A DNA stretch of 41,804 nt. Source: an uncultured Bauldia sp. GTDB lineage: Bacteria; Pseudomonadota; Alphaproteobacteria; Rhizobiales; Kaistiaceae. A program made the position numbers and the translations under genes. Where the stretch lies: positions 1 to 41,804 of the forward strand of contig CAYOET010000132.1 of NCBI GenBank assembly GCA_964402985.1. The letters are read 5' to 3'. The notes below the pieces were generated by a model. That model had not been told where the DNA came from. It made no database searches and saw only the letters and a program-made list of their open reading frames with translations. Below, one piece after another: positions 5,625-23,946 of the stretch; within the stretch, counting starts at the first letter, position 1, and every line of letters starts with the position of its first letter.

Positions 5625-5715
5625 CGCTCACCTCATCTGTTTCGAATCGGCACAACGGACCCGAGCATCGGGCGGCTTCCATGTCCCTGTAAAGACGTCA
5701 CTATCGCGCAGTTTC

Positions 5716-6354
5716 CTACTGTTGCACCCGTGCCAGCAGTTCCTCGACCTTGGGCAGGATGCCGGCGACGATCACGGCCACTCCCGCGGCGTTGGGATGC
5801 ATTCCGTCGTCGAGGCTGAGCGCGGCGTTCGTCGCCACGCCCTCGAGGAAGAACGGATAGAGGATCGCCCCATGGCTGACGGCGATCGACTCGTAGATCG
5901 CGTCGAAGCTCGACCGGTATTCGGGGCCGAGATTGGGCGCCGCCCGCATCCCCGCGACCAGCGCCGGAATGCCGCGCTCGTCCAGCTTGGTGAGGATCGC
6001 CCCCAGCGCCCCTTCGGTCACGCCGGGCTGGATGCCGCGCAGCATGTCGTTGCCGCCGAACTCGACGATCGCGGCGTCGATCGTGTCGTCGAGCGCCCAG
6101 TCGAGCCGGGCGAGTCCAGCCGACGCGGTGTCGCCCGACACCGCAGCGTCGACCACCTCGACTGCATGCCCGCGCGCGAGCAGCGCCGCCTCGAGCTGGT
6201 CGGCGAACCCCTCGCCCGGCGCGAGCTGGTATCCCGCGCTGAGGCTGTCGCCCAGCACCAACACCCGGATCGGGTCGGCGCCCTGTGCCAGAGCCGGGCT
6301 GGCAACGGCAAGACCGACGCCGCACATGAAAGTGAGGAGGGTCGCCTTTATCAT
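5716..6354 (-). CDS. tesA: secreted SGNH/GDSL arylesterase-thioesterase (TesA-like)
   Basis: C-terminal 212 aa of ORF 5716..7143, starting MIKATLLTFMCGVGLAVASPALA (signal peptide). Contains GDSLSAG, GGND and DGMHPN blocks. Divergent from ybbA/ybbP as in E. coli. Confidence 0.8.
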   Translation of the reverse strand: MIKATLLTFMCGVGLAVASPALAQGADPIRVLVLGDSLSAGYQLAPGEGFADQLEAALLARGHAVEVVDAAVSGDTASAGLARLDWALDDTIDAAIVEFGGNDMLRGIQPGVTEGALGAILTKLDERGIPALVAGMRAAPNLGPEYRSSFDAIYESIAVSHGAILYPFFLEGVATNAALSLDDGMHPNAAGVAVIVAGILPKVEELLARVQQ

Positions 6355-17075: not shown

Positions 17076-17336
17076 CCTTTAGCGATCGTCTGTATCCGGA
17101 CCGGCCTGCCGCAAGGTGCAATAGCCGTTTGCTCTCAATCCCTTAGCGTGCCCGATTGACGCCAGAACTGCCACGCTCGGGCTCGTGGCCGCGTTTATGA
17201 GGCCGCCGGCCCGGCCCGGCAACGACAATCGGACAGGCCAGCCGTGCAATTTGTTGCCCCGCGTCCCCCGAATGCGCTACGGGACGCGCCAACCAAAGCC
17301 CCGCCGGGGCGGCTCCTCTCGACCAGGCCCGCGTCC

Positions 17337-17936
17337 ATGCAGCTCGCCGCCACAGACCTTGCAGTCGAGCGCGCCGGGCGGCGCGTCCTCAGCGACATTT
17401 CGTTTCGCGTGAGCAGCGGCGAACTCCTGACCGTGACCGGCCCGAATGGGGCCGGCAAGTCGACCCTCCTCCGCGCCGTCGCGGGCCTGCTCCGTCCGGT
17501 CTCGGGCAAGATCACGATCGACCCCGCCCCGGACGGCCCCCGCGGTCTGGCGATGCATTATTTCGGCCATCTCGACGCGCTGAAGTCCGCCGAGACCGTG
17601 ATCGCCAACCTTGCCTTCTGGCAGCGGCTCTACGGCGCGACCGGGATCGCCCCCAACGATGCCCTCGACCGGGTCGGCATCGAGACCCTCGAGGACCTCC
17701 CTGCCTCGTACCTATCCGCCGGCCAGCGCCGCCGTCTCGCCATCGCCCGTTTGCTTGTCAGCCATCGCCCGGTCTGGCTCCTCGACGAGCCGACCGCCTC
17801 CCTCGACGCGGCCTCCGACAAGATGATGGGGGGACTCATCGCCGAGCACCTCGCGAGCGGCGGCATCGCCCTCGCCGCCAGCCACCTCCCGCTGGCCGTC
17901 GCCGCCAGCGCCACCCTCGCCCTGGGCCGGGCATGA
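17337..17936 (+). CDS. ccmA: cytochrome c maturation heme exporter, ATP-binding subunit
   Basis: ORF 17244..17936, start taken at MQLAATDLAVER. Walker A GPNGAGKST, LSAGQRRR and LLDEPT are present, followed by ccmBCDG. Confidence 0.85.
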   Translation: MQLAATDLAVERAGRRVLSDISFRVSSGELLTVTGPNGAGKSTLLRAVAGLLRPVSGKITIDPAPDGPRGLAMHYFGHLDALKSAETVIANLAFWQRLYGATGIAPNDALDRVGIETLEDLPASYLSAGQRRRLAIARLLVSHRPVWLLDEPTASLDAASDKMMGGLIAEHLASGGIALAASHLPLAVAASATLALGRA

Positions 17937-18016
17937 GAAGCTCGTCCGCCCGTCCACTGCGTTTGATCGCCGCCCATCCGCAAAACGCTCCTCGCCGCGA
18001 GCCGGCCGCCAACCTG

Positions 18017-18150
18017 CCCCTTCTCCCCGGTGGGGAGCAGGTTGGGATGAGGGGCCCCCACGCTTGCCGAAGTATCCGCCGCTACTCGCGCGCTATCCGG
18101 ATGGGGCGGAGCCCCCTCACCCTAACCCTCTCCCCGCCGGGGAGAGGGGA
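18017..18150. repeat. composite palindromic MITE/REP-like element, copy A (~134 bp)
   Basis: Left arm CCCCTTCTCCCCGGTGGGGAGCAGGTTGGGATGAGGGGCCCCC. Central TATCCGGAT. Right arm CCCCCTCACCCTAACCCTCTCCCCGCCGGGGAGAGGGGA, the inverted counterpart of the left arm. Confidence 0.75.
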
Positions 18151-18254
18151 CGCGCTCCTTTCTGGATGGTCACGTCGAGGAGCACAGGGCCGCGCGATGG
18201 CCAGGCTCCTCCCCTCCCCGTCTAAGGCGCTCACCTCTCCCCGGAGGTCGCTCT

Positions 18255-18393
18255 CCTCTCCCCGGGGGGGAGAGGTCCGACCGAAGGGAGGGGTGAGGGG
18301 GCACCACCTCGGGAAGTTCGCTCCATCTAGGCGCCTCCACGGGCCAGCGTGGTACCCCCTCACCCTAACCCTCTCCCCCCCGGGGAGAGGGGA
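18255..18393. repeat. composite palindromic MITE/REP-like element, copy B (~139 bp)
   Basis: Left arm CCTCTCCCCGGGGGGGAGAGGTCCGACCGAAGGGAGGGGTGAGGGGGC. The right arm CCCCCTCACCCTAACCCTCTCCCCCCCGGGGAGAGGGGA differs by 1 nt from the right arm of copy A, and similarity continues to about 18410. Confidence 0.75.
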
Positions 18394-18441
18394 CGCGTTC
18401 ATTTCTGGATCGGGTGATCCGGCGGCGAGCAACGGCCGCGC

Positions 18442-19110
18442 ATGAGCGCCTTCGCCGCGCTCCTCGTTCGCACGATCGGCCTGTCGTTGAAGGTCGGCGG
18501 CGGAGCGTTGACCGGGCTCCTTTTCTTCCTCGCCACCGTCTCGGTCTTCCCCTTCGGCGTTGGCCCCGACCTCAATCTCCTGGCGCGCATCGGCCCGGCC
18601 ATACTCTGGATCACCGCCCTCCTCGCCACTCTTCTTGGTCTAGATCGCCTGTTCCAGGACGACCGCGACGACGGCTCGCTCGACCTCCTCGTCCTCGCCC
18701 CCCTCGCCCTCGAGCTTCAGGTCCTCGCCAAGGCCATCGGCCACTGGGTCGCGACCGGCCTGCCGTTGGTCGTCATCGCGCCGCTCCTCGGCCTTTTCCT
18801 CAACCTCGACGGGCGCGCCCTCGGCTCGGTCACCCTCACCCTCCTCGTCGGCACCCCCGCCCTCACCCTTATCGGCACGATCGGCGCCGCGCTGATGGTC
18901 GCGCTCCGCCGGGGCGGCATGCTGATCTCCGTGCTGATCCTCCCCTTCACCATCCCCGTCCTCATCTTCGGGGTGCTGGCGACGACCTCCGTCCTTTCCG
19001 CGACCGACGAGTTCCTGCCCCCCTTCCTCTTCCTCCTCGCCCTCAACCTCTTCGCCCTCGTCGTCGCCACGATCGCCGGCGCCGCCGCGATACGGACGGC
19101 GCTGGATTAG
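18442..19110 (+). CDS. ccmB: heme exporter permease CcmB
   Basis: 222 aa, 6 TM, CcmB-like (FPFGVGPD, LLVGTPALTLIG). Confidence 0.9.
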   Translation: MSAFAALLVRTIGLSLKVGGGALTGLLFFLATVSVFPFGVGPDLNLLARIGPAILWITALLATLLGLDRLFQDDRDDGSLDLLVLAPLALELQVLAKAIGHWVATGLPLVVIAPLLGLFLNLDGRALGSVTLTLLVGTPALTLIGTIGAALMVALRRGGMLISVLILPFTIPVLIFGVLATTSVLSATDEFLPPFLFLLALNLFALVVATIAGAAAIRTALD

Positions 19111-22503: not shown

Positions 22504-23946
22504 TCAGGCTGCCTCGTGGTGACGTTCGGCGGTCAGCACCCGGCCGTGCCGCGCCGCGATCCGCGCGCGGACCACTGCGCCGGGAACGCCATCGATCTTG
22601 GTCGTGATGAAATGCTCGGTGAGCCCAGTGCCGCCGCGTTCGACCAGCACGTTTCGCGTCTTGCCGATTTCCGCGTCGAGCCGCGCCGCAAGCGCCCGCT
22701 CGCCGGCCTCGCGCAGCCGCGCCGCGCGCTCGCGAACGAGGCCATGGTCGAGTTGGGCCATCCGCGCCGCCGGCGTGCCCGGCCGCGGCGAGAATGGGAA
22801 CACGTGGAGATGTGTCAGCCCGCACTCGTCGACGATGCGGAGCGAGTTCTCGAACATCGCCTCGTCCTCGGTGGGGAAGCCGGCGATGAGGTCGGCACCG
22901 AAGGCGACATCCGGCCGGACCGCCCGCACCTTGTTGGTGAAGCGGATCGCGTCGGCGCTTCTGTGCCGGCGCTTCATCCGCTTGAGGATGAGATCGTCGC
23001 CCGATTGCAGCGAGAGATGGAAGTGCGGCATCAGCCGCTCCTCTTCGGCGATCGCCGCGATGAGGTCGGGATCGGCCTCGATGGAATCGATCGACGACAG
23101 GCGGAGCCGTTCCAGCTCCGGCACCTCGCGAAGGATCGTCCGCGCGAGGCGCCCGAGACGCGGCTGGTCCGCGAGGTCGTGCCCGTACGCGGTGAGATCG
23201 ACCCCGGTCAGCACCACCTCGCGGTGGCCGAGTTCGACCAGCGTCCGCACGTCGGCGAGGACATCGGCGAGCGGCACCGAGCGCGAATTCCCGCGCCCGA
23301 ACGGAATGATGCAGAACGTGCAGCGATGATCGCACCCGTTCTGCACCTGCACGAACGCCCGCGTCTGCCGCCTGATCGCCGCCACCGGATGCCGCGCCGC
23401 CGGCCGTGGCGCCATGATGTCGCCAACCACGGCCCGCGCGCCACCCTTTTCGCCTCTCCCCGGGGGGGAGAGGCCGCCATCACCTCGCGCCGCGAAGCGG
23501 AGCGAGGGATGCGGTTGAGGGGGCTCCGCCGTATCCGGATAGCGCGGTCCCCCCTCACCCCGACCCTCTTCCCCCCGGGGAGAGGGAGAAGATGGAGGGT
23601 CGCCGTCCTGATGGGCGACAGCCAATTCCGGATTCCCGCGCGCCAGACCTCTGTAGCTCTCCGCCCGCAGCTTCTCCTCGTTGCCGAGGACCAGCGTCAC
23701 TTCCGGCATCGCTGCGAACGCCGCCGCCTCGGTCTGCGCCGCGCATCCCGTGACCACGATCGGCCGCTCCGGATTCTCCCGCCACGCCCGGCGCACCGCG
23801 TGCCGCGCGTCCCTCAACGCCTCGCCGGTGACCGCGCAGCTGTTGATCACCACGGCCTCCCGGACACCGGCTTCGGCGGCGCGCGCCCGCACCACCTCGG
23901 ACTCGAGATGGTTGAGGCGGCATCCGAAGCTGACGATGTCGATCAT
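22504..23946 (-). CDS. mtaB: tRNA (N6-threonylcarbamoyladenosine-37) methylthiotransferase MtaB (MiaB-like), carrying a repeat-derived insertion
   Basis: 480 aa with N-terminal MTTase Cys pattern (FGCRLN, NSCAVT, TGC) and radical-SAM CDHRCTFC. Residues ~120-165 are encoded by the repeat at 23453..23588. The stop abuts the ftsY start. Confidence 0.85.
   Translation of the reverse strand: MIDIVSFGCRLNHLESEVVRARAAEAGVREAVVINSCAVTGEALRDARHAVRRAWRENPERPIVVTGCAAQTEAAAFAAMPEVTLVLGNEEKLRAESYRGLARGNPELAVAHQDGDPPSSPSPRGEEGRGEGGPRYPDTAEPPQPHPSLRFAARGDGGLSPPGRGEKGGARAVVGDIMAPRPAARHPVAAIRRQTRAFVQVQNGCDHRCTFCIIPFGRGNSRSVPLADVLADVRTLVELGHREVVLTGVDLTAYGHDLADQPRLGRLARTILREVPELERLRLSSIDSIEADPDLIAAIAEEERLMPHFHLSLQSGDDLILKRMKRRHRSADAIRFTNKVRAVRPDVAFGADLIAGFPTEDEAMFENSLRIVDECGLTHLHVFPFSPRPGTPAARMAQLDHGLVRERAARLREAGERALAARLDAEIGKTRNVLVERGGTGLTEHFITTKIDGVPGAVVRARIAARHGRVLTAERHHEAA
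23453..23588. repeat. composite palindromic MITE/REP-like element, copy C (~136 bp), inside mtaB
   Basis: CCTCTCCCCGGGGGGGAGAGG...GGTTGAGGGGGC, then GTATCCGGATAG, then CCCCCCTCACCCCGACCCTCTTCCCCCCGGGGAGAGGGAG. This is the same arm / central palindrome / arm layout as copies A and B. Confidence 0.75.

Follow-up and report, generated by a model that had tools for sequence, protein, structure and literature searches.

A BoxC/TMECO-type palindromic repeat, probably inserted in frame, in the inter-domain linker of MtaB from an uncultured Bauldia sp.

We identified a palindromic repeat of approximately 139 nt (23450..23588) inside the coding sequence of mtaB in a 41,804-nucleotide stretch of DNA from an uncultured Bauldia sp. 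(contig CAYOET010000132.1; the whole of this stretch is hereafter called the window). Most probably (we would put the probability at about 0.85) it is a dispersed repeat of the BoxC/TMECO type that inserted in frame in the linker between the two domains of MtaB, where it is carried as a translated passenger. In the scenario that we propose, a composite of two inverted BoxC/TMECO-type units around a loop, each unit made of a pyrimidine-purine palindrome and a third G-rich segment, would have inserted where a linker of variable length joins the N-terminal MTTase domain to the radical-SAM domain. The gene may have survived this event thanks to a net added length that keeps the frame, a TCG-loop variant without a stop codon and a site that tolerates a disordered loop. 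The element would then be transcribed and translated as a passenger segment rich in Pro, Gly, Arg and Glu, comparable to the palindromic elements of Rickettsia. That an intergenic repeat had landed in this linker without breaking the frame was first proposed from the letters of the DNA alone (hereafter the sequence-only reading), and the related copies, the orthologues and the flanking domains all support it.

The repeat and its family

The mtaB coding sequence (22504..23946, minus strand) is one uninterrupted open reading frame (ORF) of 480 codons, identified through profile scores, alignment and predicted fold. The protein scores 413.6 bits against TIGR01579, the MtaB equivalog (cut-off 357), and the Pfam domains UPF0004 and Radical_SAM span residues 3-88 and 200-370, respectively, with one frame running across both. 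The cysteine motifs FGCRLN, NSCAVT and TGCAAQ of the N-terminal MTTase domain and CDHRCTFC of the radical-SAM domain are all kept, and the family-invariant C9, C37, C68, C205, C209 and C212 are present in an alignment of 26 sequences. Between the MTTase domain and the radical-SAM motif lies a segment rich in Pro, Gly and Arg, at about residues 120-166; both this stretch and the integrity of the ORF had already been recognised by the sequence-only reading. An AlphaFold model, for which the 26-sequence alignment served as input, has a mean predicted local distance difference test (pLDDT) score of 71, with confident flanking domains and a pLDDT below 50 over residues 108-220. With target-normalised TM-scores (TMt) of 0.67-0.72, this prediction matches the integrative MtaB model 9a6d as well as crystal structures of RimO and MiaB, and sequence searches with the window MtaB returned no solved structure closer than these. 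From the predicted fold, a disordered loop joining the two MtaB domains is the best description of the insert. We infer that the protein is made and active, and that the insert is mostly neutral for the enzyme.

The limits of the element were drawn from blastn extent, alignment and fold. The repeat does lie within the bounds first given for it (23440-23600), but blastn similarity is narrower and covers 23450-23588. At one end stands a perfect terminal palindrome, CCTCTCCCC-GGG-GGGGAGAGG (23453..23473; sequence, motif count and repeat search), which is read as LSPPGRG. At the other end, a second palindrome, CCCTCTTCCCC-CC-GGGGAGAGGG (23564..23586; sequence, motif count and six-frame translation), carries one substitution relative to the intergenic copies described below and is read as PSPRGEEG. 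The two are direct and inverted repeats of one another, thus forming terminal inverted repeats. Between them, sequence, inverted-repeat search and fold agree on an inner arm GGTTGAGGGGG (23513..23523) and a complementary inner arm CCCCCCTCACCCC (23549..23561), and the central loop element TATCCGGATA is read from the sequence at 23532..23541. The mRNA-sense strand of the element folds at -114.9 kcal/mol (z = -4.96, with 0 of 200 shuffles as stable), which is the very stable hairpin that the sequence-only reading had expected. Approximately 48 nt of extra mtaB linker (23587-23634, about residues 105-120, NPELAVAHQDGDPPS) separate the element from a direct repeat to which we return below.

The extended arm of the element contains a small internal hairpin, CTCGC-GCCGCGAAGCGGA-GCGAG with the core CCGCGAAGCGG (23484..23506), recognised by folding and by comparison of loci and typical of the Hyphomicrobiales/Xanthobacteraceae subtype. 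Hairpins with a GCGAAGC-like core (cgcgcgaagcgcg, gagcgaagcgag) were observed in the extended arm of Hyphomicrobiales-type elements here and at loci L097, L113, L115, L176 and L179. The sequence d(GCGAAGC) forms an unusually stable DNA mini-hairpin, and a core of this kind hints at an element acting as single-stranded DNA.

The units from which the element is built have been described under several names. The G/C-rich triplex motif TMECO is identical with the repeats known earlier as BoxC and PIT (Holder et al. 2015, PMC4666352). Its pattern, CCCTCNCCC-N3-6-GGGNGAGGG-N3-GGGNGAGGG, was counted 3610 times in 262 proteobacterial genomes, with TCG and CCG loops as natural variants (PMC4666352). 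E. coli K-12 has 23 copies, all of them intergenic, including five inverted pairs that each combine a TTA-loop and a CCG-loop unit; the motif is associated with local genome variability, and neither a link to mobile elements nor a function is known for it (PMC4666352). The same units have also been presented as HPG1/HPG2, a G-quadruplex-hairpin-duplex switch found in intergenic positions only (Kaplan et al. 2016, PMC5100583).

Allowing at most one mismatch per stem, we found the TMECO pattern three times in the window, always on the minus strand, vs 0 in 100 shuffles. Two matches are free of mismatches (18114-18148 and 18357-18391) and the third has one (23552-23586); the latter is the compact unit of the mtaB element, with its G-rich form on the mRNA-sense strand. 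As judged from its sequence, the mtaB element is a composite of two inverted BoxC/TMECO-type units. The sequence-only reading had called it MITE/REP-like (MITE, miniature inverted-repeat transposable element); it belongs to a named family, BoxC/PIT/TMECO, and has no linked RAYT or transposase here. In the window, no Rfam family reaches its gathering score, and only sub-threshold matches to generic hairpins fall on the element.

A scan with the strict 35-nt unit, taking one genome per species, returned at least 133 motif instances in at least 120 stretches. Matches came from Enterobacter, Dyella, Azospirillum, Sphingomonas, Xanthobacteraceae, Acidobacteriota, Myxococcota, Planctomycetota, Omnitrophota and Nitrospirota, among others, and the taxonomic range of the strict motif exceeds the published one, extending well outside the Proteobacteria. 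Inverted unit pairs are likewise present in Azospirillum, Xanthobacteraceae and Dyella loci. For the full 139-nt architecture of the mtaB copy, the best full-length match is an insert in a helicase gene (L179) of a Xanthobacteraceae metagenome-assembled genome (MAG), with 71% identity over 143 nt.

Unit variants were also read by hand. In L175, L203, L206, L214, L215, L220 and the Dyella loci, the third G-rich segment mirrors the purine stem with A replaced by T (GGGGAGAGGG/GGGTGAGGGG, GGGAGAGGA/AGGTGAGGG, GGGGAAGGG/GGGATGGGG), as an intrastrand triplex would require. An automated permutation test of mirror symmetry gave no difference (observed mean 3.26 vs permuted 3.20), in a scan that mixed registers and included palindromes without an adjacent third segment. 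Triplex-type mirror covariation, drawn from the hand-read variants only, is anecdotal.

Two further copies of the element lie in the gap between ccmA (17244-17936) and ccmB (18442-19110), whose gene identities we confirmed. They extend over 18017..18167 and 18255..18410 (alignment, fold and pattern scan), and each includes one of the two mismatch-free units, with a TTA loop on the minus strand. Their fold z-scores are -4.5 and -7.0, and all three window copies are inverted unit pairs folding into long hairpins. The claim that the same architecture occurs twice in this gap is borne out by alignment, folds and motif excess. Indeed, CCCTCACCCNNACCCTCT has three exact matches in the window and, with at most three mismatches, 10 vs 0.49 expected from shuffled controls, and CTCTCCCCNNNGGGGAGAG has five vs 0.10 expected. 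The central palindrome TATCCGGATA, which had been assigned to every copy, is present in mtaB, but the first intergenic copy has only TATCCGGAT and the second lacks it. The three window units were also compared in their right-hand tails, including 23587-23634 against the ccm units, and homology there is weak and unconvincing.

In a GC-rich genome, where Pro/Gly/Arg linkers are common, the segment could in principle be a low-complexity linker native to MtaB, whose likeness to the intergenic repeats comes from convergent composition. We find this hardly credible. A 35-nt pattern, exact except at the loop positions, is common to the mtaB and intergenic copies and recurs in copies from many phyla, the complete architecture aligns to an element of another genome as described above, and the shuffles contained no TMECO match. 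The motif counts, far above those of shuffles, argue in the same way against the resemblance to the ccmA-ccmB repeats (18017..18393) being a low-complexity coincidence, which the sequence-only reading had named as a possible objection.

Insertion into an open reading frame

The comparison with MtaB orthologues places the insert precisely. Among the best 120 of 8000 scored homologues, lengths cluster at 411-422 aa, vs 480 aa here, and 26 of these 120 were aligned. The linker between GNEEKL..SY and V.VGDIM counts 75 aa in the window MtaB, vs 5-22 poorly conserved aa in insert-free orthologues, and the extra length amounts to 67 aa relative to the closest insert-free relative. The sequence-only reading had suggested an indel at about residues 105-170 and named orthologues with an equally long linker as an objection; it is at exactly this position that the insert-free orthologues are short. 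Among the aligned homologues, only P0002 (478 aa) and P0003 (474 aa) have an insert at the same site. They are encoded on separate contigs of one Joint Genome Institute (JGI) metagenome, sample 3300056388, and are 71-79% identical to the window MtaB. The P0002 contig has the gene order of the window (EF-hand gene, mtaB, ftsY, yciB, ccm genes), and its insert peptide, PSPRRGEGWGEG ... APHPHPA ... LSPSGRG, represents the same element in the same frame. The insert peptide of P0003 reads SPLAGEV ... TPHPNPPTQGGRG, with the 5' palindrome in another frame. A metagenome scan returned insert-free MtaB loci only, at 71% identity or less.

These two homologues also bear on whether the insert could be an artefact, that is, a repeat placed in mtaB by a chimeric or collapsed assembly, or a decaying mtaB pseudogene that happens to be still open. 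The window is a single 41.8-kb contig, the window protein was found on one contig only, and repeats are classic sites of misassembly. However, full-length MtaB proteins with an element-like insert at this very site are encoded on two independent metagenomic contigs of another sample, which makes misassembly unlikely. Over some 200 additional bases the frame is preserved, all family-invariant residues are retained, and analogous in-frame copies exist in isolate genomes, e.g. in ileS of Sphingomonas hominis and lpd of Dyella. Taken together, we regard an artefact as very improbable.

Food for thought is whether the inserts of the three proteins descend from one event. We favour a single ancestral insertion over several because the three insert-bearing MtaBs form one clade; they share synteny (EF-hand gene, mtaB, ftsY, yciB), the nearest insert-free relatives fall outside, and one event is more parsimonious. 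Independent insertions into a hot spot are a rather unlikely alternative that nonetheless deserves some weight. They would agree with the different frame of the 5' palindrome (SPLAGEV in P0003 vs PSPRGEEG in the window and PSPRRGEG in P0002), with loops that differ in length and sequence, and with arms that are better kept than expected of an old neutral insert, although compensated indels can produce frame differences too. An opposite orientation of the P0003 element was also considered and dropped: judging by the first intergenic copy, compact arms may occur on both sides, and the peptide is uninformative on orientation. Protein searches with the insert peptide gave no match when word-indexed and one weak match with exhaustive phmmer, probably owing to composition filtering.

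Two side observations concern other MtaB homologues. P0087 has an unrelated 14-aa insertion (VEAVRSLSPAPGGG) in the same inter-domain linker, pointing to a site that tolerates length change. Additionally, P0010, P0100, P0102, P0067 and P0109 have long N-terminal extensions with repeat-type peptides (SHPSPRGEG, LPLEGRSKPASV, LPCGGGPGRGVAG), which look as if the start had been placed too far upstream, with the frame crossing repeats located 5' of mtaB in other genomes.

The reading frame of mtaB remained open at a loop of the repeat that elsewhere encodes a stop. At the second loop of the compact unit (23560..23562, minus strand; six-frame translation and sequence), mtaB has a CGG (Arg) codon; the mtaB copy carries TCG where both intergenic copies have TTA, and TTA would read as a TAG stop in this frame. 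Six-frame translation of the intergenic copies gives exactly one stop each in mtaB's frame, the TAG of the TTA loop (...GEG-stop-GEG...). P0002 has Trp at this position, fitting the common TTG-loop variant, and Arg or Leu is found where other genes carry the element in frame. Of the six frames, two to four are open in each element copy, and random insertion into a tolerant linker would therefore spare the ORF in a sizeable minority of cases. Selection against broken genes suffices, and no special mechanism has to be invoked.

In-frame copies in other genes and conserved stems

We searched the 133 motif instances of the 120 listed stretches for ORFs that traverse the unit and extend for 80 codons or more to either side, and checked the candidates with Pfam. 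Six elements lie in frame inside genuine genes with Pfam domains on both sides. Two are found at the same site of ileS (IleRS), in Sphingomonas hominis (L108) and in Sphingomonas sp. PP-F2F-G114-C0414 (L174). The others lie between the DEYQD and VGDDDQ motifs of a UvrD-type helicase (Xanthobacteraceae MAG), in the linker that joins the lipoyl and E3 domains of Lpd (Dyella sp. EPa41), in QueG (Pseudomonadota MAG) and in a metallophosphoesterase (Omnitrophota MAG). In the literature we found no report of BoxC/TMECO copies translated inside genes. Whether such elements create protein linkers, a question raised by the sequence-only reading, can be answered with yes for this family.

The ileS pair allows a closer look at how these copies evolve. 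In the flanks of the L108 and L174 elements, protein identity is 75-81% and 4-fold degenerate sites (n = 186 and 42) agree to only 55-60%; the element itself has 83% DNA identity. The approximately 59 stem positions of the two units, read from the alignment, are all identical; it is in the 3-nt loops that the copies differ, and 19 nt of the central loop are conserved as well. With stems intact while nearby neutral sites are near saturation, something would therefore maintain the DNA or RNA structure, be it selection on structure, gene conversion from other copies or re-copying. In L174, about 35 codons upstream of ARHPMH, ileS contains a second extra segment, LPSRHPGGGRDPLTNGGDRGEVGPGLRRGDGEEGGVA, without counterpart in S. 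hominis, which may be another GC-rich repeat translated in frame.

Stem conservation raises the possibility that the insert in mtaB is not passive, and that its nucleic-acid structure (a hairpin, triplex or G-quadruplex on the mRNA-sense strand) or its peptide linker has been co-opted for a function, such as translation pausing, mRNA stability or expression tuning of mtaB-ftsY-yciB. In keeping with this, the element arms are recognisable across three MtaB lineages that are only 71-79% identical, whose loops are not alignable, and the identical ileS stems stand against the far lower identity of neighbouring 4-fold sites. Moreover, the unit forms a triplex or G-quadruplex in vitro (PMC4666352, PMC5100583). 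Nonetheless, gene conversion from the many genomic copies, or re-insertion, explains stem conservation equally well, and in published work neither a role as promoter, terminator or regulator nor a triplex signal in vivo was found (PMC4666352). The host genes are functionally unrelated, and most MtaB orthologues manage without the insert. Co-option is in our opinion distinctly unlikely.

Several observations weigh against a simple in-frame passenger insertion in mtaB, the reading that we prefer. Translation through a hairpin of -115 kcal/mol is assumed. The ~48 nt of extra linker next to the element match none of the compared element copies. As far as the sequences tell, the stem identity in ileS fits poorly with a purely neutral passenger. 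Finally, a perfect 11-nt direct repeat, CCCGCGCGCCA (23433..23443 and 23635..23645, plus strand; repeat search), brackets the whole extra segment and may be a target-site duplication, but its copies are 202 nt apart, which is not a multiple of 3, and a simple insertion with duplication would shift the frame. Either this repeat, noticed post hoc, is fortuitous (roughly p = 0.01) or there was a second indel.

The ccm locus has a flanking repeat of its own. A 13-nt direct repeat, GGCCG[G/C]GCATGAG (plus strand; repeat search), stands at 17925..17937 and again at 18434-18446, with 12 of the 13 positions identical. It is the duplicated junction of ccmA stop and ccmB start (ATGA overlap), bracketing a 509-nt insert, and looks like a true target duplication. 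A degenerate form of GGCCG.GCATGAG also lies between the units (~18185-18197), and the presence of the junction sequence three times suggests two insertions or a tandem duplication of ~240-nt units, each bounded by the target. An ORF of 170 codons without family match (17933-18445, plus strand) runs through both intergenic elements; it starts at an ATGA overlapping the ccmA stop and ends at an ATGA overlapping the ccmB start. This ORF could preserve the translational coupling of ccmA and ccmB over the 509-nt insert.

A candidate mobiliser and comparison with known systems

Another question regards the way in which these repeats move. A tblastn search with E. coli RayT (E <= 0.01) gave no match, either in the window or in the 0.9 Mb surrounding the 120 listed motif loci, and neither a parent insertion sequence nor a transposase was found near those loci, where the sole recurrent neighbour is a DUF559 gene. 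In 4 of the 120 listed loci, this gene (a Vsr-like PD-(D/E)xK nuclease of ~115 aa) sits exactly between a G-form and a C-form unit. The start codon follows the G-form unit after 3-10 nt, and the C-form unit overlaps or abuts the stop codon. The loci concerned (L175:3045-3543 and 5636-6075; L090:1284-1679; L189:2564-2846; L084:7167-7331) include decayed DUF559 copies between units, frameshifted in L084 and internally deleted in L189, and a second paralogue in L175 that is flanked alike by a different unit variant.

Further DUF559 loci with units are L203, L206, L208, L212-L221 and E. coli NC_000913.3 1351204-1351760. Loci fetched by DUF559 similarity alone show the same bracketing in three Sphingomonadales contexts, as do ten loci from a plasmid collection (Azospirillum, Shinella, Sinorhizobium, Methylobacterium, Sphingomonas, Neisseria, Photobacterium, Deinococcus, Synechocystis and Picosynechococcus); in S. 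meliloti and Deinococcus, the gene is flanked by 50-75-nt inverted repeats that include the unit. In all the DUF559 loci examined (19 loci, ~14 independent contexts), units lie at or within ~60 nt of the start and/or stop codon. The bracketed loci span Alpha-, Beta- and Gammaproteobacteria, Deinococcota and Cyanobacteria, and unit variants are lineage-specific. In a strict count, perfect pyrimidine-to-purine palindromes reach 4.4 per kb in DUF559 flanks (7 of 10 loci) vs 0.017 per kb in a control of 461 kb from loci with neither a DUF559 gene nor a unit.

In E. coli K-12, ycjD is the sole DUF559 match that a non-exhaustive search found. A degenerate unit is located at its stop codon, and 168 nt downstream lies BoxC copy #9. 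The gene is present in E. coli phylogroups A, B1 and C, and B2 has the eef operon instead (PMC12817139). BoxC copies number 19-30 in E. coli lineages with ycjD, 1-2 in B2 and 11 in O157:H7 (PMC4666352, supplementary tables S1/S7); BoxC copy number follows the presence of ycjD, in a comparison that is confounded by phylogeny. The fabI-sapF locus was considered as evidence on the mechanism and set aside: E. coli without ycjD carry the eef operon there, with no BoxC at the junction, which is uninformative in this respect.

By analogy, we tentatively suggest that BoxC/TMECO units might be the termini of a selfish element with a DUF559 nuclease gene, and that hairpins without the gene, the mtaB insert included, might be its non-autonomous derivatives, with stems kept in coding sequences. 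We see this as possible rather than probable. The window has no DUF559 gene, and the family would be mobilised in trans, for which a DUF559 gene at another place in the genome is a possible source. We found no connection with repeats in the literature mentioning DUF559. The bracketing offers a testable candidate both for the BoxC mobiliser and for the function of DUF559/YcjD.

Palindromic repeats translated within genes were already known, as was this family; the new element is the presence of BoxC/TMECO copies inside genes. A repeat family studied for 30 years as an intergenic curiosity of E. coli would also be translated in conserved enzymes across several phyla, making selfish repeats a recurrent source of disordered protein linkers outside Rickettsia. 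The in-frame copies further provide a natural experiment on what maintains the stems. For genome annotation, peptides such as PSPxxGEGxGEG or PHPNPLPxGER, within proteins or at their ends, can be taken as repeat-derived.

The closest known system is BoxC/PIT/TMECO itself (PMC4666352, PMC5100583), with which the window element shares the pattern, the TTA vs CCG/TCG loops, the inverted pairing and the lack of a linked transposase. Three composite copies in 41.8 kb, far above chance, may also agree with the many dispersed copies of that family. In contrast to the E. coli K-12 copies, which are all intergenic, the copy at 23450-23588 would be translated inside a conserved enzyme; intergenic location describes the E. 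coli copies and does not define the family structurally. The window composite also has an extended arm with an extra small hairpin, and its host is a GC-rich alphaproteobacterium.

Rickettsia palindromic elements (RPE) are palindromic repeats found in frame inside Rickettsia genes (Ogata et al. 2000, as summarised in PMC10969869). Like the BoxC-type copies, they are palindromic, about 100-150 bp long, located both in intergenic regions and in frame in unrelated conserved genes, and translated into a peptide where the fold tolerates it. However, nearly half of the copies are intragenic in 3 of 10 RPE families (PMC10969869), compared with only about 5% of the BoxC-type copies sampled. The BoxC-type family is, moreover, very GC-rich, its hosts are free-living and spread over several phyla, and its units would have mirror symmetry of the triplex/G-quadruplex type. 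The likeness of the window element to RPE is to be taken as an analogy only, since its GC-rich composition makes relatedness unlikely.

With MITEs and intragenic ERIC-type elements (PMC10969869), the mtaB repeat has in common terminal inverted repeats, a small, non-coding nature, possible flanking direct repeats and in-frame fusions. It differs in that no parent insertion sequence is known for it and in that the flanking repeats are long (11-13 nt) and, for mtaB, uncertain.

Finally, REP/REPIN sequences resemble the BoxC-type units as short palindromes that occur singly or as inverted pairs, in hundreds of copies, and that bracket a single-copy gene of nuclease type, with a unit sequence that varies with the bracketed gene copy. 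The bracketed gene is there a RAYT (IS200/IS605-like) and for BoxC-type units a DUF559 nuclease, whose role in mobilisation is that of a candidate only. If this role were true, the DUF559 element would represent a RAYT/REPIN-like system based on a different nuclease and on triplex-type DNA, able to settle in coding sequences.

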